This document shows positions 7,208 to 56,260 of a stretch of 64,000 nucleotides of DNA, piece after piece. Source of the DNA: Acidobacteriota bacterium (GTDB lineage: Bacteria > Acidobacteriota > Vicinamibacteria > Vicinamibacterales > JAKQTR01); contig JAPKZO010000040.1 of assembly GCA_026393755.1 (NCBI GenBank), positions 39,311 through 103,310 of the forward strand, read 5' to 3'. Numbering within the stretch: the stretch's first letter is position 1; the number at the start of each line of letters is the position of its first letter. Under the pieces are notes generated by a model. The model made no database searches, was not told the origin of the DNA, and saw only the letters and a program-made list of their open reading frames with translations. A program made the translations under genes and the position numbers.

Positions 7208-8454
7208 AACCAGAACGACAGTTGAACGCCGACCAGGGTGTCGCGGCGGATCTGCCCGCCGTCCCGCCAATGGCTCAACACGGACGACTTCAGCAGCAGC
7301 CCCCGGCGAATCGTGTATCCCAAGCCCAGTTCGACGCGCGAGACGTCCGCATCCCACGTCATGTCACCAGTCGACGTGCGGATCGACGAGAACCAGATGC
7401 GATCGGCGCGAGCCGCGACAAAGAGGCCTGGGCGCACGCGAACCCGCCCCTCCACGTAGCCTCCATGGGCGGCAAGCGGTTTCGTGATTGCCGGCGAGTC
7501 AATCGCCGGCACGGACCACTGGTTCACGACGAACTCACCGCGAACGAGCCACCGATCCCACGAGGTCTCGACATCGACGCCGACGGCCTGCTGGCGGCTG
7601 CTGGTGTCGCGAATGTCGGACCGCGTTGCGAGCACATCGCGGCCGAGCAGCGCGCCACGTGCGGCCGAGAGACCGACGCTCAGGGCGGGCAGGGGCCGCC
7701 AGGCGAGACGGCCTGCGAGCTGCCGACCGGCGTTGTCGTCTCTCACGACCGGATTCGAGAGCGTCCCAGCCGTGACGGCCACGGCCCCTTCGAGCGTCTG
7801 CGTACCGAATCGCGCCTGAATGCCGGTGTCCCAGCGCGACGCGGAGACAATCGGGAGCCCGCTATCCGCGTAGGCGTTTCCGACGGGATAGTGGACGGCC
7901 CATCCCCGGCCACGCATCCGGGCCAAGTCGTCGGCCGATGCAGGCACGGCATCGGCACGCATCGTCGTCAGATACTGGTAGACGAGCGGGACACCGATCA
8001 GCGGATTGTCCTGCGGATAATTGCGGCGCCCGTACGCGCCAAACACCGGAGGAATGCGGCCTGCCTGGATCGTCACCGCGCCGCTGTCGAGTGGATTGAG
8101 CCGGACGTACCACGCGTAGGGCCGTATCCCAAGACCGGTCTCGGCGCGCAGTTCCGCTAACAGGATCAGGCGGCGCGAGACCCGCGCTTCGACAGTCAGC
8201 CCGGCGTGCATCCGGCGCAGCGTGTCGGTTTCGTAATCGGCGTAGGTGAACCAGCCGGGATCGGCGCTGCCATAGGTGACCGATGCGTCACCGGCGACCA
8301 GCAGACGCCCGTCGAACAACGTCACTGGTTGCGTCGGCCAGGATTGAGCGAACGCGTCACCGGCGTGGACGCCGAGTGACGAGACGGCGACCAGCGCAGC
8401 CACTGCGAGCGGCCGAAGATAGCGCAACCGGAGCATGCGGGGTGCCTGATCCAT
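7204..8454 (-). CDS. putative outer-membrane beta-barrel/porin-like protein
   Basis: 416-aa ORF with a signal peptide (LAVAALVAVSSLGVHAGDAFAQ), alternating beta-strand-like sequence and C-terminal GVQLSFWL. It is the first gene of a 4-gene minus-strand unit with the cupredoxin-like, kinase and NtrC-family genes. Confidence 0.7.
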   Translation of the reverse strand: MDQAPRMLRLRYLRPLAVAALVAVSSLGVHAGDAFAQSWPTQPVTLFDGRLLVAGDASVTYGSADPGWFTYADYETDTLRRMHAGLTVEARVSRRLILLAELRAETGLGIRPYAWYVRLNPLDSGAVTIQAGRIPPVFGAYGRRNYPQDNPLIGVPLVYQYLTTMRADAVPASADDLARMRGRGWAVHYPVGNAYADSGLPIVSASRWDTGIQARFGTQTLEGAVAVTAGTLSNPVVRDDNAGRQLAGRLAWRPLPALSVGLSAARGALLGRDVLATRSDIRDTSSRQQAVGVDVETSWDRWLVRGEFVVNQWSVPAIDSPAITKPLAAHGGYVEGRVRVRPGLFVAARADRIWFSSIRTSTGDMTWDADVSRVELGLGYTIRRGLLLKSSVLSHWRDGGQIRRDTLVGVQLSFWL

Positions 8455-8475
8455 TCTATGTGAGAACGCGGGCGC

Positions 8476-8590
8476 GAGATAACCACTCCGGAGTGATTAC
8501 CTGGAAGCGTTTGCCTGCCTGGGCTGGCGATAATCACTCCGGGATTGATTAACTCGGGCTGGCGATAATCACTCCGGGAGAGTGATTATC
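8476..8590. repeat. palindromic repeat cluster A (3 copies)
   Basis: Copies at 8481-8499 (AACCACTCCGGAGTGATTA), 8531-8552 and 8566-8589. The last two sit in a tandem 35-bp unit (8521-8555 / 8556-8590) whose first 24 nt are identical. The stop codon (8586-8588) of the upstream gene lies inside the last copy. Confidence 0.9.
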
Positions 8591-9467
8591 TGTTGATGAC
8601 CGCGCGGAGGGCGCGGATGTGGGCGGGGGTGGTGCCGCAGCATCCGCCGATGATCTGCACGCCCGCGGCCAGCAGTTCAGATGCCCTCGACGCCACTTCG
8701 TCCGGCGTCTCGGGGTACACGGTGGCGCCGTGGCTGATGACGGGCAGGCCCGCGTTGGCCTGGATCGCGATGGGCACGCCGGCGTGTTGTTTGAACGCGC
8801 GCGCAATCTCGACCATCGTTTCGATGCCGAAGCCGCAGTTTGATCCCACGATGTCCGCGCCGGCGGCCTGCAGTCCATTGGCGGCGGCGGGAATCGAGAC
8901 GCCCATCACCGTGAAGAACCCGCGGCGCGTCTTCTCGAAAGTCATGGTGGCGAGGATCGGGACGCGTGGCGCCGCCGCGCGGATGGCCGCGACGGCCATC
9001 GTGGCTTCGTCGAGATCGGTCATCGTCTCGACGCAGAACAGGTCGACGCCCGCGCCGGCCAGCGCCGCCGCCTGTCGCTCGAACGCCGCCGCCATCTGCG
9101 CCGGGTCGGTGTTGCCGAACGGCAGCCGCAGCCGACCGGTCGGCCCCATCGAGGCCGAGACGTAGGCGCGGTCTCCCACCGCCCGGCGAACGGCCGCGAC
9201 GGCCTGGACATTAATCTCCTCAGCGCGGTCCGCGAGAGCGAATGACTCCAGCTTGAGCGGCGATCCGCCGAACGTGTTGGTGGTGATGATCTCGGCGCCC
9301 GCCTCGAGATACAGGGCGGCAATCGCTTCAATCACGTCGGGGCGGTCGAGATTGAACAGTTCCGGCGGTTCGCCGGCCCTCAGTCCGCGCTCCATCAGCA
9401 ACGTGCCCCAGGCCCCGTCGCCGAGGATCACCTCACCCCGCGCCAGCCGTTCGCGAATGTCATCCAT
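8586..9467 (-). CDS. homocysteine-binding S-methyltransferase domain protein (MetH N-terminal module-like)
   Basis: 293 aa. ILGDGAWGT, TTNTFGG and the Zn-ligand cysteines VGSNCGFG and IIGGCCGTTPAHI are typical of the Hcy-binding (S-methyl_trans) domain. Confidence 0.9.
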   Translation of the reverse strand: MDDIRERLARGEVILGDGAWGTLLMERGLRAGEPPELFNLDRPDVIEAIAALYLEAGAEIITTNTFGGSPLKLESFALADRAEEINVQAVAAVRRAVGDRAYVSASMGPTGRLRLPFGNTDPAQMAAAFERQAAALAGAGVDLFCVETMTDLDEATMAVAAIRAAAPRVPILATMTFEKTRRGFFTVMGVSIPAAANGLQAAGADIVGSNCGFGIETMVEIARAFKQHAGVPIAIQANAGLPVISHGATVYPETPDEVASRASELLAAGVQIIGGCCGTTPAHIRALRAVINR

Positions 9468-9473
9468 GCCGCG

Positions 9474-10106
9474 CTACCCCACCAGCGCGCGAGCGCGATC
9501 GACGGCGCTGGCGGCGTCGAACGCGTACGCGTCGGCGCCAATCTCCCGCGCGAAGTCGGCCGACACGGGCGCCCCGCCCACCATGATCTTCACAGACGAT
9601 CGCAGGCCGCGCGACGTGACGAGATCGACGACGTCCTTCATCACGGGCATGGTGGTGGTCAGCAGCGCGGACATGCCGATGATGGACGCACCGTTGGCGA
9701 CGGCGGCATCCACGAATGCCGGCGCGTGGACGTCGGCGCCGAGGTCAACCACCTCGAAGCCGGCTCCCTTCAGCATGATGCCGACCAGGTTCTTGCCGAT
9801 GTCGTGCAGATCGCCGTGCACCGATCCGATGACCACGGTCCCTCTGGTCGGAATGTTCGCCTTGAGCAGCAGCGGCTTTACCAGATCCATGCCGGCGTAC
9901 ATGGCCTTGGCGGCCAGCAGCACGTCGGGCAGGAAGATATCCCTCACGCGGAACTTCTCGCCGACCACGTTCATGCCGCCAATCAGTCCGCGGTCCAGGA
10001 TACGGGCGGGCGGCACGCCCGCATCAATGGCCTCGCGGGTCAGGTCGCGCACGCGCTCGTCGTTGCCCAGTTCGAGATGTTCAGCAATCTGCGCCAGAAT
10101 GTCCAT
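9474..10106 (-). CDS. corrinoid (cobalamin-binding) protein with B12-binding cap and Rossmann domains
   Basis: Start set at ATG 10106 (MDILAQIAEHL), preceded by GGAGAG 7 nt upstream. DxHxxG motif GDLHDIGKN, SALLTTT, MVGGAPV. Confidence 0.9.
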   Translation of the reverse strand: MDILAQIAEHLELGNDERVRDLTREAIDAGVPPARILDRGLIGGMNVVGEKFRVRDIFLPDVLLAAKAMYAGMDLVKPLLLKANIPTRGTVVIGSVHGDLHDIGKNLVGIMLKGAGFEVVDLGADVHAPAFVDAAVANGASIIGMSALLTTTMPVMKDVVDLVTSRGLRSSVKIMVGGAPVSADFAREIGADAYAFDAASAVDRARALVG

Positions 10107-10122
10107 CTGATCTCTCCACTCA

Positions 10123-10815
10123 TCATCGCACCGATCGCATGCGCGGCAGGCATTGCCGCGTGGTGCAGTTCGCACAAAACGAGAACTCGGGGCGGAACCG
10201 GTGAATCGGCGCGGCGCCCGCCACCAGCACGCCCGATACCGACTTGAGCGGCTGCATCAGGCAGCTCTCGTTGAGGCTGATCCCAATCTCGCCCGGCCCC
10301 AGCCGCTCAAACAGCTTGCGCTGTGCGCTGATGTGCCAGCCGCAGTAGCCGGGGCTGTATCCCAGCACGGCGGTTCCCCCGTCCGACACGCGCTCGCGGT
10401 ATCTGGCCGCCAGCCGATCGGCCAACAGATCGGAGGAGACCGACGCGACGGCATCGAGCACATAGCCGCGCGCCATGTCGTCGGCGGCAAACAACTCGGT
10501 GATCCGCGCGCTCACCCGCGCTCCCAGGGTGGCCACAAACAGCGCCAGCGAATCCGCCCGCGGGTAGATCCGCTCGAGCGGCGTCTCGTGACTGTTGCGG
10601 CCTTCGCCCGCATACACCAGGGCGAACGCCTCGGCAGTCACATCATCGACGAGGCCCGTGGGTTCGGCCAGCCGCTCGAACTCCGCGACGGCCGCCTCGA
10701 TCAGCGCATCGGTGCGCGTCGAGACGGGTGCCGGCGATCCCATCCCCATCCGATCGAGGACGTCGCCGCGCGGCGGCATCGCCTCGCCGATCGAGAATAC
10801 GACACGCTCTCTCAC
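10123..10815 (-). CDS. methionine-synthase activation (AdoMet-binding reactivation) domain-like protein
   Basis: 230 aa with a GTG start overlapping the mttB-family stop (GTGA). GYSPGYCGWHISAQ resembles the RPAPGYPACPEH segment of the MetH activation domain. ISLNESCLMQPLKSVSGV also resembles that family. Confidence 0.75.
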   Translation of the reverse strand: MRERVVFSIGEAMPPRGDVLDRMGMGSPAPVSTRTDALIEAAVAEFERLAEPTGLVDDVTAEAFALVYAGEGRNSHETPLERIYPRADSLALFVATLGARVSARITELFAADDMARGYVLDAVASVSSDLLADRLAARYRERVSDGGTAVLGYSPGYCGWHISAQRKLFERLGPGEIGISLNESCLMQPLKSVSGVLVAGAAPIHRFRPEFSFCANCTTRQCLPRMRSVR

Positions 10816-12272
10816 CGTTCGCGCGCCGGCAAGGCCGTCATGCCAAAGCGCCTGGCCTCGCGCTCCATCACCGCGGTCAGATCGCGCCGCGCCTGCTCCG
10901 ATACGCGCGACGGCGTGTAGCCGGCCAGCAGACGCGACACCTCCCGCACGGCCCGATCGCGCAGGGTCAGTCCCCCGTCTTCGAGCCAGCGCGCCTGGTT
11001 CGCCCGGTCAATCACCGGGCCAGGAAACGCGATCTGCTCGCGCAAGTGCCGGCGCGTGTGCTTCGCAATCAGCAGATGCTTCTCGCGCAGCAGTTCCTGG
11101 AACAGCGGCAGCGACGGGAAGTCCTCCCTCGGCTCGATGCCTCTCAGCAGCCGCGCGGTCATGCCGCAGATCTCGTTGTCGACCACGAGCTTCTCGAGGC
11201 TCTGGCAGCTCTCGAAATCGAGCATCCCCGGACCCGAGATGTTGTTGATCCCGGACAGCGCGGCCAGCACCGCGCCAATCCCGGTTTCGAGCCCCGCCTG
11301 CGCATCGAGTTGCTTGGCGTCACTCAGCGAGATGTAGCCCTGTGTGGGCAGGCCCAGCGACTTTCCAATCTCGCTGTTGGCGCAGTCGATCATCATCGTC
11401 TCGATCGCGCCCATCGGCGTGGTCTCGTACCGCACGTCGAAGATGGCCGGCGACCCGCCATAGAGGACCGGATGTCCGGGACTGGTCAGCTGGCTGATCA
11501 CGATCCCGCTCAACGTCTCGGCGGTCTGCTGGATGAGGCTGCCGACCAGTGTCACCGGCGCCATGAACCCGGAGAGCGGCATCGAAATGAACTCCACCGG
11601 GATCGACCACCGGGCGCAGTCGACCAGGTTCTGGCTCGTCACGTCGCTCCACTTGATGGGTGCGGTCGGGCAGCAGGAGAACACGGCCAGCGGCTTGTCC
11701 TTGAGCGCCTGCGCGCTGCCCCGAACGGCCAGCAGCAGGTCCTTCATCACCTCGAACGCCTCGATGGTGAAGGCGCCCGTGACCACGGGCTTTTCGCCGT
11801 AGAGCAGGCTGAGATAGAGACGGTAGCTGTCTGAGATCCGCTCGTGCACATCGCCGGGAATCAGGGCGGTGCTCTGTGACGCAATGTTCGGCAGGCCGCT
11901 GACCACCTTGGCGTACTTCACATAGTCGTCCGTGGTCGGCTTGCGGCTGGTGACGCCGTCCTGGTCGAGAACCTTGATGGCCGCTGATCCGGGCGTGAAA
12001 TAGACGTTGCTGCCGGCGAAATCGTGCGTCTGATTGCCGACGGCGTCATACAGCTTGAACGAGTGCGCCACGGTGCTGAGCGCACGATCGAGAATGTCAG
12101 GCGTGAGGCGCGCGTGCCACGCCTCCAGATTCACATCCGCGCCGTGGCCGGCCAGCATTTCCAGGATAGGCTTGTTGTGGATTTCGACGCCCAGCTTGCA
12201 GAGGATGTCGCGCGCCTCGCCAACGATGCGCTGGATCAACGTGTCGTCCAACAATCTCAAACTCGGTCTCAT
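10812..12272 (-). CDS. MttB-superfamily (trimethylamine methyltransferase family, non-pyrrolysine) methyltransferase
   Basis: Start set at ATG 12272 because AAGGAG lies 5 nt upstream (the ORF-track start 12347 would overlap the upstream gene's 3' end and its stop-abutting hairpin). Full-length similarity by eye to MttB/MtgB-type proteins (ISGPGMLD, VVDNEICG, YETTPMGA). No in-frame TAG. Confidence 0.9.
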   Translation of the reverse strand: MRPSLRLLDDTLIQRIVGEARDILCKLGVEIHNKPILEMLAGHGADVNLEAWHARLTPDILDRALSTVAHSFKLYDAVGNQTHDFAGSNVYFTPGSAAIKVLDQDGVTSRKPTTDDYVKYAKVVSGLPNIASQSTALIPGDVHERISDSYRLYLSLLYGEKPVVTGAFTIEAFEVMKDLLLAVRGSAQALKDKPLAVFSCCPTAPIKWSDVTSQNLVDCARWSIPVEFISMPLSGFMAPVTLVGSLIQQTAETLSGIVISQLTSPGHPVLYGGSPAIFDVRYETTPMGAIETMMIDCANSEIGKSLGLPTQGYISLSDAKQLDAQAGLETGIGAVLAALSGINNISGPGMLDFESCQSLEKLVVDNEICGMTARLLRGIEPREDFPSLPLFQELLREKHLLIAKHTRRHLREQIAFPGPVIDRANQARWLEDGGLTLRDRAVREVSRLLAGYTPSRVSEQARRDLTAVMEREARRFGMTALPARER

Positions 12273-12287
12273 GAGTCTCCTTTTCGC

Positions 12288-12307
12288 GGGCGCAATGCAT
12301 TGCGCCC
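12288..12307 (-). other. intercistronic perfect 20-nt palindrome
   Basis: GGGCGCAATGCATTGCGCCC lies directly after the TAG of the aminotransferase gene and 15 nt before the mttB-family start. Its outer arms match the hairpin at 3247-3266. Confidence 0.8.
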
Positions 12308-13441
12308 CTACAAACCCCTCTGCTGCGGGAACAGTCCCCTGTGCCACAGGAACGCCTCGACGGCGGCCAGGAATTCCGTCAGGTACTCCTCGCTGGTGGC
12401 TCTGCCGAGATGCCCCACGCGGAAGATCTTGCCAGCCAGGTCTCCAAGCCCCCCCGAGATCGCGATGTGCCGCTCATCGAGCAGCCACCCACTGAATTCC
12501 GACACCGTGAACTCGGGCCGCGCGTGAAACGCCGTGACCATCGGCGCAGAGCACGACTCGGCCACGTACGGCACAAACCCCATCCTGATCATGCCTTCGC
12601 GGACGCGGCGTCCGGCGCGGGCGTACTTCGCGAGGTGCGCCGGCATCCCGACGCGGGCAATCGCCCGCAGGCTGGTGAGGACGGCGAGCAGCGTATTCGA
12701 CGACACGGTGACCGGCGTCGGGTGCCACGCGCCCCACTCCTTCGCGTACTGGCGCCATGTCCTGAGGTTCAGGTACCACCCATGGCCGGCGCCAGGGTGG
12801 TCGTCGACCATCTCCCACGCCCGCGGGCTGACACTGATGAAACCGAGGCCGGCCGGCCCTTCGAGGCACTTGTTCGACGCCGTCACGCACACATCAATGC
12901 CCCACGCATCGACCGGAAGCTCCACGCCGCCGAGCGACGAGACCGCATCGACGACCACAACGCGTCCGGCCGCGCGTGCCGCCGCCGCCAGTTCGCGGAT
13001 CGGGTTCAAGACGGTCGTGGAGGTCTCGTGATGCGTGATGGCCACGACTCTGGCGTCCGGGTGCGCGTCGCACACCAGGCGCAACGCAGCAGGATCGAGC
13101 GGCTGGCCAATCGGCGCCTTCAGCGGCACGACATTCAGCGCATGCGCTTCGGCGATATCGGTCAGCCGGTCGCCAAAGAACCCGTTCTGGCCGACGATGA
13201 TCGACTGGCCGATGGGGAGGAGGCTGCCGATCGCCATGTCGAGCGCGGCCGAGCCTGGCCCCGGCACGATGAACAGATCGGCGCCGGTCCCGAAGATCTG
13301 CTTCAGCAGCGTCTGGGCTTCGCCATACGTTGCCTTCCACACGGGGCCGTAGTGACGCTGGACCGGCTGCCCCATCGCGGCGAGCACCTCGTCGTCCACA
13401 TCGCCCGGCCCCGGAATAAAGAGCTTTACGTGATCCGTCAT
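12308..13441 (-). CDS. class-V pyridoxal-phosphate aminotransferase (alanine-glyoxylate/serine-pyruvate family)
   Basis: 377 aa. LFIPGPGDV N-terminus, TASNKCLEGPAGLG (PLP-lysine context), DAVSSLGG. Confidence 0.85.
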   Translation of the reverse strand: MTDHVKLFIPGPGDVDDEVLAAMGQPVQRHYGPVWKATYGEAQTLLKQIFGTGADLFIVPGPGSAALDMAIGSLLPIGQSIIVGQNGFFGDRLTDIAEAHALNVVPLKAPIGQPLDPAALRLVCDAHPDARVVAITHHETSTTVLNPIRELAAAARAAGRVVVVDAVSSLGGVELPVDAWGIDVCVTASNKCLEGPAGLGFISVSPRAWEMVDDHPGAGHGWYLNLRTWRQYAKEWGAWHPTPVTVSSNTLLAVLTSLRAIARVGMPAHLAKYARAGRRVREGMIRMGFVPYVAESCSAPMVTAFHARPEFTVSEFSGWLLDERHIAISGGLGDLAGKIFRVGHLGRATSEEYLTEFLAAVEAFLWHRGLFPQQRGL

Positions 13442-14934
13442 TGGAGTATCCCGGGGGCCATTTCAGCGGGTCTTGCCACAACGGCGAGGGCGCCGCCCTC
13501 GCCAACGATGTAGAACTCGTCGGCCTTGATTGCCAGGCCCACCGGGCGATCGAGGCCGGGGATCGCATGCGCCGCCACCACGGCGTGCGTGGCGAGGTCG
13601 ATCGTCAGCAGTGTGCTGTATGCCGCACTGATCGCGTACAGGCGGCCGCCATCGACAGTGGCCCCCGTCACGTAGTACTCGTCGAGCGAACGCTTGTCGC
13701 CGCTCAACCGCAATCCGGCCTCCCCGGCCAGCGCCGGCATGAACTCCTCCGACAGGGTCAGATCGCGCCGGTCGAAGCGGGAGATCACCAGGCGCTTGAC
13801 CTTCGCATTTGGCACCGTCACAGTGTAAATCGACCTGGTCGCCGGATCGAAGGCGAGCGACATCGTGTACATCATCCGCGCGCGCACCGTCCCCAGACGG
13901 GACCGCGACACCTCGTCGAACCGGTCGAATGATTCCAGGAAGAACCGGAAGTTCTTGTCCGCGTCCGCCTGGTCGTTCTCGCGCAGCACCACGTAGCTCT
14001 TGTTCTCGCCGACCGCCATTACGATCTTGCGCTCGAGGAACGCGGCTCCTGCGAATCGACCCAGGTCGATAGAGAACCCCGGGTCGACCACTGTGTACCG
14101 CGCGATCCGTCCGAGCGAGCCATCAGTAATGTAGACCCCTGATTGCGTGGTCACGAGGAATCGATTGGTGGCCTGCTCGTACGCCAGATCAGTGACCGAG
14201 CCCCGCAGGGGCAGGGCCAGCGTGCGCTGCTCGCGAATCGGCAGCACAGGGAGGCTGGCAAGCGGACCGGCTGCCGGATCGGCCGGCAGGCCCGCCACGC
14301 CCGGCTTCTCAATTGCCCATCGACCGCGCAGCGACGCGGGTGCGGGCGACCACTCCTCGAGCGACCACACCCAGTGCCTCGGGGCGAAGGAGAAGCGGAT
14401 CGGATCGCTCTGGCCCATGTACGGCGGCGGCCCGGTGCTGGCGAACGCCTGAACGATGTTGCCTGCCACGACCACGAGAAAGACGCTGAAGGCGAGCGAT
14501 TCGAGTGGGCGCAGCGTGCGCGGTTCGGCTGGCGTCTCCCCTTCTCTCAGCAGCATCAGCAGCAGGCCCATGGTGACCGTGCAGACCCAGAAGATAAAGA
14601 GCGCCCAGGTGTAGGTGTGGGCGCCGAGGATTTCCAGGCTGAAGCCCTGTCCCACGTCGCGCGCCGCGTGCATCCCCGTGTGCCGCAGCCCCATGAAGAT
14701 GCCCCACGCGCCGAGCAGCACCGACAGTCCGAGGTACTTCGGCCGCGGTCCGTAGCGGAGTACGAACAGCCCCGTCAGCGCGACCAGCACCATGCCCGTG
14801 CGCTGTTCCCAGCACATCACGCACGGCGAGTCGCCGTACACGAACCCGAACAGGAAGACCGCCGCGCCGATCGGGATGAGCGACAGCACGAGGACGGCCA
14901 GCGCCAGCATCGAGTAGATCGCGTTGCGTCTCAC
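13438..14934 (-). CDS. DsbB-like membrane domain fused to a large periplasmic beta-rich domain
   Basis: GTG start with GGGAGGA 7 nt upstream. N-terminal TM bundle with SPCVMCWEQRTG (DsbB/BdbC-type CxxC). A fifth TM is followed by ~320 aa of Cys-free repetitive beta-strand-like sequence. ATGA overlap with the downstream aminotransferase gene. Confidence 0.8.
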   Translation of the reverse strand: MRRNAIYSMLALAVLVLSLIPIGAAVFLFGFVYGDSPCVMCWEQRTGMVLVALTGLFVLRYGPRPKYLGLSVLLGAWGIFMGLRHTGMHAARDVGQGFSLEILGAHTYTWALFIFWVCTVTMGLLLMLLREGETPAEPRTLRPLESLAFSVFLVVVAGNIVQAFASTGPPPYMGQSDPIRFSFAPRHWVWSLEEWSPAPASLRGRWAIEKPGVAGLPADPAAGPLASLPVLPIREQRTLALPLRGSVTDLAYEQATNRFLVTTQSGVYITDGSLGRIARYTVVDPGFSIDLGRFAGAAFLERKIVMAVGENKSYVVLRENDQADADKNFRFFLESFDRFDEVSRSRLGTVRARMMYTMSLAFDPATRSIYTVTVPNAKVKRLVISRFDRRDLTLSEEFMPALAGEAGLRLSGDKRSLDEYYVTGATVDGGRLYAISAAYSTLLTIDLATHAVVAAHAIPGLDRPVGLAIKADEFYIVGEGGALAVVARPAEMAPGILQ

Positions 14935-14952
14935 GCCGGATCCTCCCGCGTT

Positions 14953-15120
14953 CTAATAATTCACACCGGGCAGCATCCCGGTCCGGGTGGCCATCGAAAA
15001 GAGTCCCACCATCAGCAGCACGCTCAACACGAGGAGCCGGAAGGCGAGGCGCTCCTTCTCGGGCTTCCGGAAAATCAGGCGGGCCGTGATGAAGATGAGG
15101 ACGAAATTCAGAAATTCCAC
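14953..15120 (-). CDS. small hydrophobic protein (55 aa), first gene of the corrinoid operon
   Basis: GTG 15120 is preceded by AGGAGG with a 5-nt spacer. Product MEFLNFVLIFITARLIFRKPEKERLAFRLLVLSVLLMVGLFSM has two TM-like segments. The stop is 18 nt before the next gene. The rest of ORF 14953-15264 is an Arg-rich leader. Confidence 0.5.
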   Translation of the reverse strand: MEFLNFVLIFITARLIFRKPEKERLAFRLLVLSVLLMVGLFSMATRTGMLPGVNY

Positions 15121-15257
15121 GCGATCCTCCTGTGGCCTGGCGTCCCGGGGGGCTCGGGGCTCGCGTCTGGCGGGACGGCCGAGTCTATCAGCGGACGGCC
15201 CCGATCGGCAACGCGACGCGCTTGCCACCCCGCCGGGCGCGTGATACAAACGGCCCC

Positions 15258-15367
15258 TAATCACTCCCGGAGTGATTACAGGCGGGCTAATTACTCCCGG
15301 AGTGATTACGGTTTTGTAATTACTCCCGGAGTGATTGCAGGCGGGCTAATTACTCCGGGAGTGATTA
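15258..15367. repeat. palindromic repeat cluster B (4 copies, ~30-bp period)
   Basis: TAATCACTCCCGGAGTGATTA at 15258-15278. TAATTACTCCCGGAGTGATTA at 15288-15308. 15317-15336. 15347-15367 has the central base inverted. A 59-bp higher-order repeat is present (CAGGCGGGCTAATTACTCC occurs twice). The cluster lies in the divergent intergenic region. Confidence 0.95.
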
Positions 15368-15467
15368 TTCGGCCGACTCGCGTTGGGCGGGGACGCGGAG
15401 GAACCGTCGTCCGGCGGCCCGGAGCGTCTGCAGAAAGCAACAGCGAGGGATTCAGGAGAGAACAGAC

Positions 15468-17228
15468 ATGACACTGAAGAGGAAGTTGCTCGTTGTCGGG
15501 ATGACACTGGCAATGGCCGGCATGGCCGTCGCAGCCGCCGTCTCGGTTCGCGCCGCCGGAGAGTCCATCAACTACGGCGATCTCGCCAAGATCAAGGCCG
15601 AGGGCCTCCAGCGATCGCAGGTGATGGAGCTCTGCAGCTGGCTGTCGGATGTCTACGCGCCGCGCCTGACCGGTTCGCCGATGGCGCAGAAGGGCGCCGA
15701 CTGGACCGTCGCGAAGATGAAGGAGTTCGGCCTCACCAACGTGAAGATCGAGCCGTGGGTCAACCGGAACGGGTTTGAACGGGGATGGACCAACGACAAG
15801 TTCTACCTGGCATTCTCCTCGGCCGACGGGAAGTTCCCCATTCCCGGAACGCCAACCGCCTGGACGCCGGGCACCAAAGGACTGGTGACAGGCGGTGTCG
15901 TACTGGTCAGCGCCCCGAGGGAAGAGGAGTGGCTGGCATTCAAGGGCAAACTGCGTGGCAAGTGGATCCTGACCCAGGATGTGCCGGACGTCGCCGCCTA
16001 CTGGGATCCGATTGCGAAGCGGTATACGACCGAACAATTGCAGACCATGGAATTGCAGGCGGCGCCGGGGCCGGAGTTCGGCGTGACGCCTCCGGGCGGG
16101 GGCCGGGGAGGCCAGGTTGGCGCACCGGCGGCGGCGCAGCGCGGTGCGGCAGCCGCTCCCGCAGGCGCGCCAGCTAATGCCGCGCAGCCGGGGCCGATGC
16201 CTCGCAGCGGTCAGGCTGCAGCCGCAGCCCGCAACGCATTCTTCTTTGCCGAAGGTGCCCTCGGCACGATCTCGACGGCACCGCGCGGCCACGGCATCTA
16301 CACGATCGGCGGCAACCGCGCGGCCGATCCCGCGACCACGCTGCCGGCAATCGCGATCGATGCTGAGCACTACAACCGCATCGCCCGCATGCTGGCCAAG
16401 AATGTTGCGGTGACCATTGAGGCCGACATCACAAACACCTTCTATCCCAATCCGGCGGTCTTCAACATCGTCGGCGAGCTTCCGGGCACTGACAAGGCCG
16501 ACGAAATCGTGATGCTCGGGGGCCACTTCGACACGTGGCATGCGGCCACCGGCGCCACCGACGACAACGTGGGCGTGGCTGCGATGATGGAAGCGATGCG
16601 CATCCTGAAGGCCACCGGCGTCAAGCTGCGCCGCACGGTCCGCATCGGACTGTGGGAAGGCGAAGAGCAGGGCTTGCTCGGGTCGCGCGAGTACGTGTCG
16701 GCGCACTTCGCGAGCCGCGGAGCCGCACCGGCGGTCGCGGGCGCTCCTGCGGCCGGCGCCGCGCCAGCCGGCGGCGGGCGGGGCGGCCCGCTGGGCCCGC
16801 TCGAGTTCAAACCCGAGTACGACAAGTTCTCCGTCTACTTCAACATCGACAACGGCACCGGCGCCTTGCGCGGCGTGTATCTGCAGGGCAACGACGCGGT
16901 GGCGCCCATTTTCCGCGAGTGGATGGAGCCGTTCCGCGGGCTCGGCATGACGACGATCACGATTCGGAACACCGGCGGCACCGATCATCAGTCGTTTGAT
17001 GGCGTAGGGCTGCCAGGGTTCCAGTTCATCCAGGACGAGATCGAGTACAGCGCGATGACGCATCACACCAACCTGGATACGTACGAGCGGCTGCAGCCGA
17101 ACGATGTGACGAGGATGGCGACCATCGCCGCGGGCTTCGCGTATCTGGCAGCGAATCGCGACGAGAAGCTCCCGCGCAAGCCGATGCCGGCTCCGGGCCA
17201 GGGCGGCCGAGGACGGGGAGGACTGTAG
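15468..17228 (+). CDS. M28-family metallopeptidase (aminopeptidase), secreted
   Basis: AGGAGAG RBS and a signal peptide (VVGMTLAMAGMAVAAAVSVRA). Zn-ligand contexts LGGHFDTWHAATGATDDNVGVAAMMEA and GLWEGEEQGLLGS. Contains Ala/Gly/Pro-rich insertions. Confidence 0.9.
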   Translation: MTLKRKLLVVGMTLAMAGMAVAAAVSVRAAGESINYGDLAKIKAEGLQRSQVMELCSWLSDVYAPRLTGSPMAQKGADWTVAKMKEFGLTNVKIEPWVNRNGFERGWTNDKFYLAFSSADGKFPIPGTPTAWTPGTKGLVTGGVVLVSAPREEEWLAFKGKLRGKWILTQDVPDVAAYWDPIAKRYTTEQLQTMELQAAPGPEFGVTPPGGGRGGQVGAPAAAQRGAAAAPAGAPANAAQPGPMPRSGQAAAAARNAFFFAEGALGTISTAPRGHGIYTIGGNRAADPATTLPAIAIDAEHYNRIARMLAKNVAVTIEADITNTFYPNPAVFNIVGELPGTDKADEIVMLGGHFDTWHAATGATDDNVGVAAMMEAMRILKATGVKLRRTVRIGLWEGEEQGLLGSREYVSAHFASRGAAPAVAGAPAAGAAPAGGGRGGPLGPLEFKPEYDKFSVYFNIDNGTGALRGVYLQGNDAVAPIFREWMEPFRGLGMTTITIRNTGGTDHQSFDGVGLPGFQFIQDEIEYSAMTHHTNLDTYERLQPNDVTRMATIAAGFAYLAANRDEKLPRKPMPAPGQGGRGRGGL

Positions 17229-21517: not shown

Positions 21518-21931
21518 TTAATCGTCGAACAACTCCGGCCGCGCGGACCGCAGGGCTGCCCGGACGGAACGGCCCGCAGTCACCGCTGCCCGGCACTCGT
21601 CCTCGAGGTACGAGGGGCCCCCGGGATACCGCGCGATCGTGCCGCCATCGGTCAGTTGCTGACGAAGGCGTGGCGTCAGGATATTCGCCAGGGCCTCGCG
21701 GATGTCGCTCTCCTGGGTCTCCAGGAGACGATCGAAGTTGTGCGTGTACACGAACGCCTGGTTCGCCGACGTCAAGACCGCTTTCAGAAGGCGCTCGGTC
21801 GCACCAGCGGACAACGCGACGGCCTCGTTCCACATCCGGCGCTCGAACGCCGTCTCCGCCAGCTCCAGCTGCCGGTCGGCAGCTGCCACCCACTCCCTCG
21901 CGAGCGTGCGAGCGCGATCGTCAGGCGGCAT
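21518..21931 (-). CDS. HEPN domain protein (putative toxin partner of the MNT gene)
   Basis: 137 aa. LLKAVL, THNFDRLLE and IARYPGG segments fit HEPN (PF05168-type) from memory. Its 5' end overlaps the upstream nucleotidyltransferase gene by 11 nt. Confidence 0.75.
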   Translation of the reverse strand: MPPDDRARTLAREWVAAADRQLELAETAFERRMWNEAVALSAGATERLLKAVLTSANQAFVYTHNFDRLLETQESDIREALANILTPRLRQQLTDGGTIARYPGGPSYLEDECRAAVTAGRSVRAALRSARPELFDD

Positions 21932-22481
21932 ACAACTCGATGCCTTCGCGGCTGGCGGGATGCTCGATCGCCCCCACGCAGTCGCGGCGCCACTCGTACT
22001 CGGAGTGCGTCGTGATCAGAAGGTCGTAGTCGATCGGCACCGATCCGATCGCGACACGCATGTCAATGACCGCGGCTCGGGTGGCGGGTTGCCCGTCGGG
22101 CAGCACGACGAGGATGTCGAGGTCACTGTCCGGACCAGCATCGCCGCGCGCATGTGACCCGAAGAGGACAATCCGTTCCGGATCCCACCGGCGCAGTTCC
22201 GTCACGATACGCTTCAGCGTGGCCGCATCAGCACCGGCCAAGCCCGCCTTGCGCCGGACCTCCTCGTAGGGCACGCGGCCGCGGTCGCGGCGCCCCTTCC
22301 GGGCAGCCTGCGCGTCATCCTGATCTTCGAGGGCTTCCAGACGAGCGAGGTCGGCAACCGAGACGAGCGCCGCGACGGCCTTGCCGTGGCGTTCGAGCAC
22401 GATCCGCTCGCCGCCATAGGCAACGCGGTTGAGGGTGTCACCGAACGTGTCGCGCACGGCCGTGGCAGCCAATCTAGCCAT
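21921..22481 (-). CDS. Phd/YefM-like antitoxin domain fused to a minimal nucleotidyltransferase (MNT) domain
   Basis: The N-terminal ~55 aa (AVRDTFGDTLNRVAYGGERIVLERHGKAVAALVSVADLARLEALED) look like Phd/YefM. A basic linker follows. The C-terminal part carries LFGSHARGDAGPDSDLDILVV, the GS-x9-12-D-x-D nucleotidyltransferase signature. Confidence 0.8.
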   Translation of the reverse strand: MARLAATAVRDTFGDTLNRVAYGGERIVLERHGKAVAALVSVADLARLEALEDQDDAQAARKGRRDRGRVPYEEVRRKAGLAGADAATLKRIVTELRRWDPERIVLFGSHARGDAGPDSDLDILVVLPDGQPATRAAVIDMRVAIGSVPIDYDLLITTHSEYEWRRDCVGAIEHPASREGIELYAA

Positions 22482-31875: not shown

Positions 31876-31937
31876 AGGTTCTCCGACTCTATCCGCCAGC
31901 GGCGGGCCCTGTCAAAAGGGCGACAGCCCGGATGGGC

Positions 31938-31994
31938 AATTACTCCCGGAGTAATTGTTCCCGAACGTTCGGTAACAATCACTCCGGGAGTGAT
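31938..31994. repeat. palindromic repeat cluster C (composite 57-bp palindrome)
   Basis: AATTACTCC-C-GGAGTAATT (31938-31956, perfect). Inner perfect palindrome CCGAACGTTCGG (31961-31972). AATCACTCC-G-GGAGTGAT (31977-31994) is in inverted orientation. The cluster ends 5 nt before the stop of the gene at 32000. Confidence 0.95.
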
Positions 31995-31999
31995 CATTT

Positions 32000-41618: not shown

Positions 41619-42244
41619 GTCGCCTCAGGGCCTGTCAGGAACGGTCGCGCGGTGAATTCGTGCAGAGAATAGCACAAAGGCACCGGGGCGAATTCAATCA
41701 CTCCCGGAGTGATTACAATTCCGTAATTACTCCGGGATGATTGGACACTCAGCCGGGCGATCTGCTTCATGTGGTGGCGGGTGTGGACGAAGTGGAATCG
41801 GCGCCACTGCCCGGCGTCGAGCGGCCCGAGGATCGGATGATTGGCGAGTTTCGTCCGGCGTCCGAACCGCGCTTCGGCCGCCGCCGCCGCACCGTCCAGC
41901 TGCGCCAGGGCCGCCAGGGCATCGTCTCTGACGGTCGGGGCCGGGCTGGGTGACGGGAGGGCCACGGCAGGGGCCTGGGAGCCGGTCGGAAAGTGGCCGA
42001 GATCGACGACCACCCACGCGGCCACTCGCTCCCGCAGCGTAGGTCGCCTGCCCTTCGGCTTGTTCTGCCCCACGCATCGATTGAGGATATACGCCGTGCT
42101 GGTATACGTCCGAAGCAGATGGTCGAGAATCTGGGCGACGGACCAGCGGTCCGGCTGGCGACGACGCCCGATGTCGTCGGGCGCCAGATCAACGGTTGCA
42201 GCGCGCAGCGCGTCTGCGGTGGCCTGCAGGATGGGATGCAGCAC
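41525..42244 (-). CDS. DinB/DUF1569-like protein with an apparent 3' read-through extension
   Basis: Residues 1-165 look like a DinB-fold/DUF1569 protein (WSVAQILDHL, GQWRRFHFVHTRHHMKQI). The last ~75 codons run through repeat cluster D and 94 nt into the kinase gene. The biological C-terminus was probably near 41740. Confidence 0.65.
   Translation of the reverse strand: MLHPILQATADALRAATVDLAPDDIGRRRQPDRWSVAQILDHLLRTYTSTAYILNRCVGQNKPKGRRPTLRERVAAWVVVDLGHFPTGSQAPAVALPSPSPAPTVRDDALAALAQLDGAAAAAEARFGRRTKLANHPILGPLDAGQWRRFHFVHTRHHMKQIARLSVQSSRSNYGIVITPGVIEFAPVPLCYSLHEFTARPFLTGPEATWNPRLSARTVSSNGWEPVGWVRSTWRWTPV
41696..41742. repeat. palindromic repeat cluster D (2 copies)
   Basis: AATCACTCCCGGAGTGATTA at 41696-41715. 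TAATTACTCCGGGA-TGATT at 41724-41742, where one G is missing relative to the other 12 copies. Confidence 0.9.
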
Positions 42245-46991: not shown

Positions 46992-47014
46992 CCGGTCGGC
47001 TGCCGGGTCCGGAC

Positions 47015-47069
47015 GATCACTCCCGGAGTGATTGCGTCCGCCGGACAACCAATCACTCCGGGAGTGATC
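47015..47069. repeat. palindromic repeat cluster E (composite 55-bp palindrome)
   Basis: GATCACTCCCGGAGTGATTG (47015-47034) and its exact reverse complement CAATCACTCCGGGAGTGATC (47050-47069) flank an inner palindrome GTCCG-C-CGGAC (47036-47046). The element lies between convergent stops (46991 and 47074). Confidence 0.95.
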
Positions 47070-47073
47070 GTCT

Positions 47074-50000
47074 CTATGTTGCGGAACTGTCGAGTTGCTC
47101 CCGTACCTTGCTGGCCAGGGATGCGGGCGTGAACGGTTTGGCAAGAAACGCGAACGACCCGGTCCCGACTTCCTGGCGGAACATCTGGTCGTCGGTGTAG
47201 CCGGACATGAACAGCACCTTCATGTCGGGGCGCCGGGGCTTCAGACGGCTCGCCAGCTCGGTCCCCCGCATCTGCGGCATCACGATGTCGGTCACCAGTA
47301 TGTCGATCGGTCCCTCATGCCCGGCCTCGAACCCCAGAGCCTCCGGACCGTTTGCCGCTTCGAACACGTCATAGCCGCGCTGGCGGAGGATCGAGGCGGC
47401 CAGCCGGCGCACCTGCACCTCGTCTTCGACCAGCAGTACGACCTCGGATCCTCTCGGCAACTCGACACGCTCCTCGGGCGTTTCTTCGACCTGCGCCGGC
47501 GACGTAGCCACCGGCAGGTCGACGTGGAACGCGGTGCCGCGACCTCGTGCCGTGTCGATCGTGATCTGTCCCCGCAACTGTTTTACGATGCCGTAACAGG
47601 TCGCCAGACCGAGCCCGGTTCCCTTACCGGCTGCCTTGGTCGTGAAGAACGGATCAAAGACGTGAGCGGCCGTCCGTCCGTCCATGCCGGTACCGGTATC
47701 GACCACTGACAGCCTGACGTACGCACCCGGAGGCGTATCAGGTTCACGCGTCGGGTCGCCCTCGGCCATCTCGACGTTCGCGGTGCGGAGTGTCAGCGTG
47801 CCACCGTCCAGCATCGCGTCTCGCGCGTTGACGGCCAGGTTGAGCAGCACCTGTTCGATCTGGGCGGGGTCGACGTGCACGGCCATGGCATCGGGCGCCA
47901 GGATCGTGACCAGCTCGACGTGCTCGCCAATAAGACGCCTCAACATGCGATCGGTCCTCAAGACCAGATCGTTCAGATTCACGGTCCGCGGCTCGACAAT
48001 CTGTTTGCGGGCGAACGCCAGCAGTTGGCGAGTGAGCTTCTCCGCGCGCTCGGCCGCCACCTGGATCTGCCCGACCTCGCCGTGCCGCTCGTCTCCCGGC
48101 TCCAGCGCGTCATCGAGCAGCGACGCATTGCCCATGATGATAGTCAGGAGATTGTTGAAGTCGTGCGCGATGCCTCCCGCCAGACGCCCGACGCTTTCCA
48201 TCTTGTGAGCCTGCTGAAGCTGCGCTTCGAGACGCCGCTGCGCGGTGACATCGAGAATCTGCCAGACCAACGAGGGCTTTCCGCCAATCTCGATCCGCGC
48301 CGGGTAGAGGACGACGTCGGCTACCTCGCCCGACTTGCAGCGCAACTGCGTCTCAATCCGGTGACTTCCATCAGGGTCGTCGAGTGCTGACACTACCGCA
48401 GCGCGATCCTCTGGCCGAATCCAGAAACCGATGTCGGTCACCGTCCTGCCGATCACCTCGTCGTGGGTGTATCCAAAGCGCCGGGCAAACTCCTCGTTGA
48501 TATCGACGATGCGACCCTCTTCGGGCGACGAGATTCCGGTGGCCAGAGGACTGGAATGGAAGATCTGGCTGAATCTCTGCTCTCGCTCCTGGAGTTCGCG
48601 GTGATGCCGCCGGCGGCGAATGCCGAGATTGACGACCAGACCGAGGCTGATGATGCCGAGCGTCGCCATCGGCACGTAGAAAGCCGGGCGCAGGTAGAAC
48701 GGCCGGGCGATGGACACGGGAATCGTCGCCACCGGTCCAGGATGCCCAAGCAGGCCTTTCGCCTGGATACGAACGACATGGTCGCCTGAAGCGAGCGAGC
48801 CGAACCTCCGTGTTCGTTCGGTCGACCACATGGCCCAGGGGCCTTCGTCGATCCGGACACGGGTCGGGACATCGTCTGACGCCAGTTCACCCCACCACGC
48901 AAACGCCCGCCAGCTCACCTGGACCGCGTCGGCTTCGGTCACAGGGGGCTCATTGATCACGATTGGGGGCGGCGATGGATTCCCGACGTCCAGCACGGCC
49001 AGCCCTCCACCGTTGGTTCCGATGTACGCGTAGTCAGCCGCTGGCCGCACGGGCCACACCCTCGTGCTGCGCAGCCCGGCGCGCGTATCGAACGTCGTCC
49101 AATTGCCGTCCTCGAGGACCGACAAGCCTCCGAGGCACGAGACCCACACACGGCCCCGCGCGTCTGGCTGGACCGACCACACGTCATCGCTCGCCAGCCC
49201 ATCGCGGCTGGTGAAGTAGCGAATCGTGTCGCCCTGCAGCCGGCCCAGGCCCCCTTTCGTCTGGTGCCCGAACCACACGGCACCCGACAAGTCCACAGCG
49301 AGGCTGAATATCCTGTCGAACGCAAGTCCCTCCGCGAGCGTCCAATGACGCCACTGGCCGTGGAAAAAGCGGCTCAGACCTCCGCTGGTACCAAACCAGA
49401 ACGCGCCGTCCGGCGCCTCCGCGAAGGCGTAGACCCGGCCGCTCTTCAGTCCTTCGGCCACGCTCCAGCGCGTGATGCGGCCGTCGGGACCAAGCTGGAA
49501 GGCGCCAGGACCATCGATCGGCCGCGTTTCTCCTGCTCCTGCCGTCGACGCGAGACCCAGGAACCACACGCCGCCGCCTGAATCGGAGGCCACGTGATGC
49601 ACGTAAGTACGATCCAGCAGGGGGTCGTCGGTCAACCGGTGCCAGCCCTTCCGGTCAAGCCACCGCACGCCGGTAAAGCTGCCCCCGCTCGAGATCCAGA
49701 GGCGACCCCGGGAGTCCCGCATCACGCCTGTCACGGTGCCGAGGGCTTCCCGACCGATTCGCTGAATGTGTTCGGAGACCTCACCGTTGCGCTGCACCCG
49801 AACAAGCCCATTGGCTGTCGCCAGCCACATGCCGTCGTGGCCTCGATAGATGTCGTTGACACCATTGCGGCCGTCGGCCGACGGGAACGACAGAAATGTC
49901 CATCGGGTGACCGAACGGCTGGCGAGGAACAGGCCGTGGTCCGACGTCACCCACACGTCGCCGTTGGCCCGAACTCCTATCCCATGTGCGTCCGTCATCT

Positions 50001-54691: not shown

Positions 54692-54696
54692 CGCGC

Positions 54697-55641: not shown

Positions 55642-56260
55642 GCGCCACGGCGGCGTTCTCGCTTGCGGGCTGGCCGTCATCTCGGCCGCGGCCCTTGCAC
55701 CGGCGGGCTTACAAGGAGATCCCGTGCCCGTCTGGGCGTGGGGTCTGTGGACGCTCAGCTTCGCGACGGCGCTGTGGGCGTTTCACAAGGCCGGCCTGCC
55801 AGGCGCCGAGGCTGTGCGCCGGATCGCGTGGCTGATGCCACTGGTCGCGGCCTTCGCGCTGCCCGCGGCGCTGCTGGCACCAACGCGTGCCCGCTGGTTG
55901 GTGGCGCTCACGCTGTCGGTGCGGGCGCTGGCAGCGGCGGCAGGGGGCGCCGGCATCGCCACATGGCTCGGGCCCAGCGGCATCGTCAACGGCGCGGGCC
56001 AGTTGGGTGCGCCGCAACGATTGGTGGATGTGCTCGAGGCAACGCTGGCCAGCCTCGCGACTGTGCTGCGACAGATCAGAGCGATGCTCCAGGCACGCGA
56101 GGCCAGACGCACGACGTTCGGCGCGTGGAGTGATCTGGCCGCGGAACCGGCAGACACGATCCGCGGATTCGGCAGGGTGGTGGCGGCGCTGCTCCTCCAT
56201 TCGCTCGAACGGGCCGAGGCGCTCGAGCGAGCACGCCGCGCAAGAGGATTCGAGCCATGA
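55625..56260 (+). CDS. cbiQ: ECF transporter transmembrane (T) component, CbiQ-like, short
   Basis: ATG 55625 overlaps cbiM by 17 nt. The hydrophobic protein ends with the ARG-type motif region (ALERARRARGF). The position between M and ATPase genes supports the call. It is shorter (211 aa) than typical CbiQ. Confidence 0.6.
   Translation: MPYTGKRHGGVLACGLAVISAAALAPAGLQGDPVPVWAWGLWTLSFATALWAFHKAGLPGAEAVRRIAWLMPLVAAFALPAALLAPTRARWLVALTLSVRALAAAAGGAGIATWLGPSGIVNGAGQLGAPQRLVDVLEATLASLATVLRQIRAMLQAREARRTTFGAWSDLAAEPADTIRGFGRVVAALLLHSLERAEALERARRARGFEP

Follow-up and report, generated by a model that had tools for sequence, protein, structure and literature searches.

We analysed a stretch of 64,000 nucleotides (nt), here called the window, from a metagenome-assembled genome (MAG) of an Acidobacteriota bacterium (GenBank assembly GCA_026393755.1, contig JAPKZO010000040.1, positions 39,311 to 103,310 of the forward strand). 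Seven consecutive minus-strand open reading frames (ORFs) occupy 8586-15120 and are coding-like, with a GC content at third codon positions of 0.79-0.86 (Table 1). The last four encode a homologue of the methyltransferase MttB, a protein resembling the activation domain of the methionine synthase MetH, a corrinoid protein and a homocysteine methyltransferase (HcyMT), and this four-gene cassette is the subject of the present analysis. A preliminary description, made from the sequence alone, had presented the whole run as a MetH-like operon in which the MttB-family protein replaces the folate module. Its observations on the sequence itself held: seven co-oriented genes with tight junctions and Shine-Dalgarno-like sites were found on reading 8586-15120, the motifs GYSPGYCGWH, GDLHDIGKN, GSNCGFG and GGCCGT were each found in the translated products, and Pfam and NCBIfam searches returned all of the assigned domains (PF06253, PF02607/PF02310, PF02574, PF02965 and PF00266).

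Table 1. Genes of the minus-strand run, in the order of reading
Gene	Position	Strand	Start, junction and product length
Dba	14953-15120	-	GTG start at 15120, caGGAGGa upstream; first gene of the run
DsbI	13438-14934	-	GTG start, GGGAGGA upstream; 18-nt gap after the Dba stop
Class-V aminotransferase	12308-13441	-	ATG start; ATGA overlap with the DsbI stop
MttB homologue	10812-12272	-	ATG at 12272 the most likely start, AAAGGAG upstream; 35-nt gap; 486 residues
Activation-like protein	10123-10815	-	GTG start; 4-nt GTGA overlap with the MttB gene; 230 residues
Corrinoid protein	9474-10106	-	ATG at 10106 the most likely start, GGAGAG upstream; 16-nt gap; 210 residues
HcyMT	8586-9467	-	ATG start; 6-nt gap; 293 residues

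Conservation of the four-gene unit

Relatives of the locus were collected by scanning one genome per GTDB species with an alignment of the activation protein, which gave at least 580 confirmed stretches encoding it. The best 80 of these, all from MAGs or single-amplified genomes, were surveyed by tblastn with the window proteins (L numbers designate comparison loci). The complete array, running from the MttB homologue through the activation and corrinoid proteins to HcyMT in the same order and on the same strand, was present in 55 of the 80, and most of the incomplete loci end at contig ends. These best 80 loci span more than 15 phyla and include Acidobacteriota, Gemmatimonadota, Phycisphaerae/Planctomycetota, Fidelibacterota/Neomarinimicrobiota, WOR-3, Cloacimonadota, Fermentibacteria, Ignavibacteria, Calditrichia, Eisenbacteria, Dehalococcoidia, Acidimicrobiia, Armatimonadota, Zixibacteria, TA06, Aminicenantes and others. 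The MttB homologues had a median identity of 69% to the window protein; the corresponding value was 62% for the corrinoid proteins, 55% for the HcyMTs and 46% for the activation proteins. The median intergenic distances were -4 nt between the MttB and activation genes, 32 nt between the activation and corrinoid genes, and 7 nt between the corrinoid and HcyMT genes.

Five metagenome contigs already annotated with Pfam, L005-L009, have the same order (MttB, PF02965 protein, B12-binding protein, PF02574 protein). In L005, where MttB is 90% identical, all seven genes are syntenic with the window, as is the sequence beyond them, including a histidine kinase and a sigma-54 regulator. L006, at 88% identity, has the four cassette genes only, with Dba, DsbI and the aminotransferase already absent, and L007, L008 and L009, whose activation proteins are 51-58% identical to that of the window, likewise carry four genes only, in unrelated surroundings. 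The four-gene core at 8586-12272 is far beyond a chance association. Since its order is kept across loci, and since Dba, DsbI and the aminotransferase are lineage-specific neighbours and not parts of the cassette, the functional unit consists of these four genes. Thus, the grouping of the MttB homologue, activation protein, corrinoid protein and HcyMT into one unit is upheld, and the larger seven-gene operon is not, because the other three genes adjoin the cassette in L005 alone.

The flanks of the cassette are not conserved. Among 534 flanking ORFs clustered from 83 loci, the top family was an ABC exporter present in 9 of the 83, followed by a CBS protein (5 loci), permeases of the major facilitator superfamily (3) and amino-acid permeases (3); as no conserved partner emerged, inferring the substrate from neighbours was abandoned. 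Two local arrangements were seen alongside this survey. L006 (14767-17035; 103-1083) has an amino-acid permease and a gene of the DDAH/arginine-deiminase family after the cassette and a second PF02574 gene 9 kb upstream, neighbours that may hint at methylated-arginine or amine metabolism in that one locus. In L007 (1846-3703) and L011 (3850-4473), the opposite strand encodes, a few kb upstream of the cassette, a second corrinoid protein paired with a methyltransferase of the URO-D family, which suggests that some Acidobacteriota have several corrinoid methyltransferase systems per genome.

The cluster had further been described as lacking any pterin-binding, MtgA/MtqA-like or RamA-like gene. 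A set of 47 ORFs, which takes in nearly every long coding-like ORF of the window, was scanned with Pfam and gave no pterin-binding (PF00809), RamA/DUF4445, DUF1638 or MTHFR match, so that the statement is borne out for these 64 kb; a 1280-residue ORF at 47074-50916, considered as a possible MetH, proved to be a hybrid sensor kinase. When the pterin domain of E. coli MetH was used as a tblastn query, a match within 10 kb of the cassette was obtained in 1 of the 80 loci, L070, where a pterin-binding gene lies 1 kb upstream alongside a second, distant MttB-like gene. The five metagenome contexts contained no pterin-binding domain, and the flank families of the 83 loci included no recurrent RamA/DUF1638- or MtgD-like neighbour. 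Orthologous clusters therefore do not always carry an MtgA-type gene; what the neighbourhood survey associates with MttB is a stand-alone homocysteine domain, in the 55 complete arrays.

The donor position of the array is itself variable. At three loci, L024 (Dehalococcoidia), L058 (Vicinamibacterales) and L065 (Acidobacteria), the trio of activation protein, corrinoid protein and HcyMT is directly preceded by a co-oriented protein of the URO-D family (PF01208), in the slot otherwise held by MttB. PF01208 is the family of the corrinoid methyltransferases of the MtaA, MtbA and CmuA types. Such swaps are the pattern expected of a methyl-corrinoid:homocysteine core with exchangeable donor modules.

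Properties of the encoded modules

HcyMT matched PF02574 over its full length (E 2e-64). In the alignment with E. coli MetH, its residues C211, C276 and C277 fall on the zinc ligands C247, C310 and C311; they are at least 95% conserved, as are the motifs DGxxGT, ETM, GSNCG and GGCCGT in the 63 cassette HcyMT homologues. In MetH and BHMT, DGxxGT and ETM contact homocysteine. Against NCBIfam models the protein scored 259 bits for the YitJ N-terminal type, 170 for MetH and 86 for MmuM, and 201 bits for the alphaproteobacterial ‘BHMT’ model NF005718 (MtgE), which is under the 338-bit cut-off of that model. Matches of the MtaA type were marginal (25 bits on 48 residues). The zinc ligands, the motifs and the ranking of the models together indicate that this is a genuine homocysteine domain and not a second methyltransferase (MT2) of the type acting on coenzyme M (CoM) or tetrahydrofolate (THF). 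The earlier assignment of the 8586-9467 product as a homocysteine-binding zinc domain is thereby confirmed, and an affinity with THF or CoM methyltransferases is not what PF02574 and the ligands point to.

The corrinoid protein combines a cap domain (PF02607, E 8.5e-19) with a Rossmann-type B12-binding domain (PF02310, E 1e-27). The latter contains the DxHxxG motif, in which D99 and H101 align with D757 and H759 of E. coli MetH, and the cobalamin ligand is thus conserved. Its NCBIfam scores were 213 bits for MtgC, 200 for pyl_corrinoid and 186 for MtbC, compared with 132 for MetH. These scores make the cassette a chimera, in which MetH-like modules for homocysteine and activation are joined to an MttB homologue and a corrinoid protein like those of methylamine systems. 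The name ‘MetH-like operon’ in the preliminary description accordingly fits the homocysteine and activation modules, and does not fit the corrinoid protein, which is nearer to the MtgC/MtbC types (213/200 versus 132 bits).

The activation protein gave a weak match to PF02965 (E 1.8e-8) that covers residues 153-200 only. An AlphaFold2 model built with 29 homologues (predicted local distance difference test score 88.8) had as its best Foldseek match in the PDB the T. maritima protein TM0269 (1J6R; E 7.8e-13, template modelling score 0.82), followed by the MetH reactivation domains of E. coli, Thermus and human (1MSK, 6BM5 and 8SSD). The predicted fold is that of TM0269 and the MetH reactivation domains, and what had been called a MetH activation-domain-like protein, weakly matched at the level of Pfam, is confirmed by this model. 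The segment YSPGYCGW is invariant in 83 of 83 sequences and aligns with APGY of the E. coli MetH activation domain, a part of the site for S-adenosylmethionine (AdoMet) in that enzyme. H205 is conserved in 82 of the 83 and R225 in all of them.

Four cysteines of the activation protein, C158, C214, C217 and C222, are also invariant (83/83), the last three forming a CX2CX4C motif. TM0269 has glycine at the position of C158 and its chain ends before the Cys-rich tail, and MetH is also without such a tail. Invariant in this family and lacking in TM0269 and MetH, the four cysteines suggest that a metal or an iron-sulfur centre is bound there. As a lead, the large subunit of the corrinoid iron-sulfur protein has a [4Fe-4S] motif that the spacing CX2CX4C resembles. 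At E ≤1e-30 the family comprises 267 representative clusters (50% identity), a number that rises to 2709 at E ≤1e-10.

The MttB homologue matched PF06253 with an E value of 5e-66. In pairwise comparison with two sequences rebuilt from PDB alignments, it was 27% identical to MtgB of Desulfitobacterium hafniense and 28.5% identical to MttB of M. barkeri, which are 30% identical to each other; it would therefore represent a third deep branch, a placement that agrees with that of Williams et al. (2022; PMC9324843). Its identity to cassette homologues across phyla is 58-78%. At the pyrrolysine (Pyl) position it has Leu316 (CTG, 11327-11325), with no in-frame UAG; leucine is found there in 69 of 71 cassette sequences, and the Pyl MttB model TIGR02369 gave 324 bits, under its cut-off of 525. 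A separate observation concerns the Rfam family PYLIS_3, the pyrrolysine insertion sequence of mttB, which matches 11228-11327 of the minus strand at or just above its gathering score and begins exactly at the CTG codon (11327) that replaces UAG. The same match occurs in 7 of 13 related loci (L018, L021, L039, L053, L055, L068 and L080). These matches most likely reflect coding-sequence homology to true mttB and not a functional element.

Betaine had been named as a possible methyl donor. In MtgB, mutagenesis and a ligand-bound structure have identified Y97, R312, H348 and F356 as the residues that bind glycine betaine, and R312 is the arginine conserved in all characterised family members acting on acidic quaternary amines (PMC13080624). 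In the window protein these positions are S96, Q311, S346 and E354, and in the 71 cassette MttBs the replacements are near-invariant (S96 in 71, Q311 in 71, S346 in 69 and E354 in 68, with D352 in 70). Because all four betaine-binding residues, including R312, are replaced, betaine is an unlikely donor. Carnitine, proline betaine and γ-butyrobetaine are, like glycine betaine, made unlikely by the glutamine in place of R312 taken together with two acidic residues close to it. The donor would most likely be a quaternary amine that has no carboxylate, choline being a reasonable guess.

Proposed pathway and alternative readings

From what is directly given by the locus and its relatives, namely the domains, the catalytic motifs, the fold, the gene order, the translational coupling and the wide conservation, we favour with moderate confidence the reading that 8586-12272 is a self-contained cassette of four genes by which homocysteine is methylated with a corrinoid and without folate. 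In the scheme we propose, the MttB homologue, as first methyltransferase (MT1), would transfer a methyl group from an N-methyl compound to the neighbouring corrinoid protein in its Co(I) state. HcyMT, as MT2, would use a zinc-activated homocysteine thiolate to take the methyl group from methyl-Co(III), yielding methionine and Co(I). After adventitious oxidation to Co(II), the activation protein would rebind the corrinoid domain and remethylate it with AdoMet and one electron, as in MetH; the most speculative step is that the four-cysteine metal or iron-sulfur site might deliver this electron. No folate intermediate would be required. The logical product of the unit is probably methionine made from methyl-corrinoid without folate, and its physiological role could be methionine supply, substrate demethylation or both, among which the sequence does not decide. 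Direct transfer from corrinoid to homocysteine, as proposed in the preliminary description, is thus well supported by comparative genomics (complete arrays in 55/80 loci, a pterin domain in 1/80) and has withstood each of the computational tests applied, while the chemistry itself is a proposal drawn from sequence.

The same cluster has been described before. Williams et al. (2022, Environ Microbiol; PMC9324843) report it in MAGs of Ca. Electryoneota as ‘found in diverse bacteria’ and arrived independently at the proposal of corrinoid-dependent methionine synthesis with an unspecified methyl donor. Their cluster likewise has genes for a homocysteine S-methyltransferase, a corrinoid protein, an AdoMet activation protein and an MttB/MtgB homologue without Pyl, the last of which falls in a clade apart from MtgB and MttB; it differs in that the evidence is at the level of annotation, and in that the present instance is from an Acidobacteria MAG. 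The core idea was therefore published in 2022, and the window cassette is an Acidobacteria instance of the described cluster, so that the value of the present work lies in sharpening and not in discovery. New here are the invariantly replaced betaine site, the URO-D swaps, the four-cysteine motif and a neighbourhood survey with counts, in which the cassette is seen as an autonomous unit in more than 15 phyla, details that make the cassette a sharper experimental target.

Four groups of better-characterised systems share parts of this arrangement. The nearest characterised one, MtgBCDE of Ruegeria pomeroyi and Phaeobacter inhibens (Mausz et al., 2025; PMC12478193, which also cites the split MetH described by Price et al., 2018), has separate MttB-family, corrinoid and PF02574 modules too, with one corrinoid protein joining amine demethylation to methionine synthesis. 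In contrast to the cassette, it requires the pterin-binding protein MtgD and passes the methyl group through THF, its genes are scattered, with mtgE usually not near mtgBCD, its reactivation is assigned to RamA and DUF1638 where the cassette has a PF02965 protein, and it acts on glycine betaine, for which the cassette MttB lacks the binding residues. MetH and the T. maritima pair TM0268/TM0269 have a homocysteine zinc domain, a His-on cobalamin domain and an AdoMet activation module homologous to those of the cassette; in TM0268/TM0269, as in the window, the activation protein is a separate polypeptide, and it is TM0269 that the window protein's predicted fold matches best. According to the citation of Huang et al. 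(2007) in PMC7857596, TM0269 is needed to reactivate the MetH TM0268. Unlike MetH and TM0268, the cassette has an MttB-family TIM barrel instead of a pterin/methyl-THF module, and unlike MetH it has a corrinoid protein nearer to the cognate corrinoid proteins of methylamine systems and an activator with an additional four-cysteine site. In the MtgB/MtgC/MtgA system of D. hafniense and the MtcB, MtpB and MtyB systems of Eubacterium limosum, a non-Pyl MttB-superfamily enzyme again loads a cognate corrinoid protein, whereas the acceptor is THF (via MtgA/MtqA) or CoM, activation is by ATP-dependent RamA, and the substrates are acidic quaternary amines bound by a conserved arginine (R312) that is glutamine in the cassette. 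Finally, the core-MetE proteins MesA-MesD make methionine from homocysteine without methyl-folate, and MesA to MesC probably take the methyl group from methyl-corrinoid proteins (Price et al., 2021; PMC7857596); they differ in having a MetE-like catalytic domain in place of PF02574, no MttB-family donor and no MetH-type activator.

Several points weigh against a self-contained folate-independent cassette. No experimental follow-up of the cluster was found in the searchable literature. A pterin-binding partner or a MetH may be encoded outside the 64-kb window, and a full MetH is present as well in cassette-bearing MAGs according to Williams et al. (2022; PMC9324843). Methionine synthesis and betaine use in Ruegeria both require the pterin module MtgD (PMC12478193). 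The role that the scheme assumes for the four-cysteine site may be correct, but it is drawn from conservation. In addition, orphan MttB homologues 76-78% identical to that of the window occur on Terriglobia-type contigs (L001, 10001-11461, and L002-L004) with no corrinoid, activation or HcyMT gene within 10 kb, so MttB is not strictly tied to the cassette and can be encoded apart from its presumed partners.

A rival reading makes the cassette part of a network of the MtgBCDE type. The corrinoid protein would then be shared with a pterin methyltransferase or MetH-like module elsewhere in the genome, the methyl group would pass mainly to THF in a catabolic role, and HcyMT would handle homocysteine within a split methionine synthase whose methyl groups come from methyl-THF. 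In R. pomeroyi, where the genes are scattered, MtgC and MtgD are each indispensable, whether for making methionine or for using betaine (PMC12478193); in Phaeobacter, MtgB and MtgE have been described as competing modules around MtgC and MtgD (bioRxiv 10.64898/2025.12.19.695462). The inspected part of the source genome is 64 kb, and L070 does combine a pterin-binding gene 1 kb upstream of the cassette with a second MttB-like gene. The arrangement of the cassette speaks against such a network, since at 55 of 80 loci in more than 15 phyla MttB and HcyMT share an operon, and translational coupling, with a single corrinoid protein, and a pterin gene is near it in only the one locus just mentioned. 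Proteobacterial mtgE is typically away from mtgBCD, which is the opposite pattern (PMC12478193). The complete MetH reported alongside the cassette by Williams et al. (PMC9324843) would also make a second folate-dependent split enzyme redundant. We consider this network unlikely, though it deserves to be kept in view. In favour of the four-gene cassette, the genetics of Ruegeria and Phaeobacter show that MttB-type, corrinoid and PF02574 modules work around one corrinoid protein (PMC12478193; bioRxiv 10.64898/2025.12.19.695462).

Alternatively, the PF02574 protein could bypass the corrinoid protein. Like MmuM or BHMT, it would take a methyl group directly from S-methylmethionine, AdoMet or betaine, or it would methylate another thiol, and its adjacency would reflect shared regulation of methyl-group metabolism. 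PF02574 does include the cobalamin-independent enzymes MmuM and BHMT, the window protein scored 201 bits against the NCBIfam model named ‘betaine-homocysteine S-methyltransferase’, and MtgE has been described as working either way (bioRxiv 10.64898/2025.12.19.695462). These points are outweighed by the fixed gene order across phyla, with a median of 7 nt between the corrinoid and HcyMT genes, and by the ranking of the models, in which MmuM reached only 86 bits compared with 170 for MetH and 259 for the YitJ type. Furthermore, the alphaproteobacterial ‘BHMT’ has been argued to be the corrinoid-dependent MtgE, without betaine-binding residues (Mausz et al., PMC12478193). A corrinoid-independent HcyMT is accordingly improbable.

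Returning to the four-gene cassette as a folate-independent unit, a bolder version of that reading can be formulated, which we put forward tentatively and rate as less likely than not. The cassette would be a widespread and autonomous methionine-synthase platform, in which the trio of activation protein, corrinoid protein and HcyMT is constant and the MttB or URO-D donors are interchangeable. The activator would be a new kind of reactivator, an AdoMet module of the MetH/TM0269 type with electron entry through its own four-cysteine iron-sulfur site, needing neither flavodoxin docking nor ATP-dependent RamA. The substrate of the MttB clade, whose members share 58-78% identity between phyla, would be a common quaternary amine of the non-acidic kind for which a role as methionine precursor is not yet known. 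If the chemistry proposed for the cassette is right, many uncultured bacteria, among them soil Acidobacteriota and Gemmatimonadota, marine Marinimicrobia, sediment WOR-3, Cloacimonadota and others, would make methionine directly from an environmental methylated amine by way of B12, bypassing the folate one-carbon pool. The inference of methionine and B12 dependence from genomes would then change, an unrecognised sink for quaternary amines would be added, and a simple four-protein system would be available in which to study the exchange and reactivation of corrinoid methyltransferase modules.

Neighbouring genes and other features of the window

The three genes upstream of the cassette belong to other families. 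The aminotransferase (PF00266), co-transcribed with the cassette in the window, is a class-V enzyme resembling AGXT and PhnW, with every NCBIfam match below its cut-off. The ‘DsbB-like fusion’ and the ‘small TM protein’ of the preliminary description are probably a DsbI/Dba pair. DsbI, a DsbB-like membrane oxidoreductase (PF02600) fused to a beta-propeller, matched NF050065 over residues 5-477 (E 1.7e-94; 317 bits against an equivalog cut-off of 800), and its membrane partner Dba, of 55 residues, matched NF050061 over profile positions 2-54 of 55 (E 3.6e-12; 46 bits against a cut-off of 90). A probable Campylobacter-type Dba/DsbI pair in an Acidobacteria MAG, with the DsbI stop overlapping the aminotransferase start (ATGA), is an observation in its own right, and it is shared by L005 only. 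That all seven genes form one pathway, with the aminotransferase handling the demethylated amine and DsbI/Dba in support, would fit the tight packing, including this overlap, and the identical seven-gene order in L005, yet it is very improbable, as L005 is a close relative (MttB 90%) with full local synteny, L006 (88%) already lacks the three genes, none of them accompanies the other cassette loci among 85, and DsbI/Dba is known as a disulfide-bond system of the periplasm, unconnected with methyl transfer. The aminotransferase and DsbI lie beside the cassette only in L005, the closest relative, among these 85 cassette-bearing comparison loci; nothing therefore points to the aminotransferase processing the demethylated product, and that earlier suggestion finds no support.

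Regulatory features were sought around the run. Rfam searches at the gathering threshold found no SAM, B12 or other riboswitch in the window and 13 related loci, where the only matches were one tRNA and the PYLIS_3 matches inside the MttB coding sequence, and a scan of 8300-15600 for promoters and terminators gave nothing that exceeds the shuffled expectation. A 20-nt palindrome, AATCACTCCSGGAGTRATTA, occurs at 10 intergenic sites of the window, with none expected by chance, at 8531-8551, 15258-15367 (four copies), 31937-31996, 41695-41715 and 47014-47070. Copies concentrate at both ends of the seven-gene block; an operon-specific operator was considered and rejected, the element being a dispersed intergenic repeat that looks like a repetitive extragenic palindromic sequence.

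Two further groups of genes in the window were recorded. On the plus strand, 54688-57036 encodes CbiM (fused to a PDGLE domain), CbiQ and an ABC ATPase, which form a cobalt uptake system of the energy-coupling factor type, consistent with an organism that uses or makes B12. On the minus strand, a single ORF at 21921-22481 joins a Phd/YefM antitoxin domain to a nucleotidyltransferase domain, an unusual fusion of modules of the toxin-antitoxin type.

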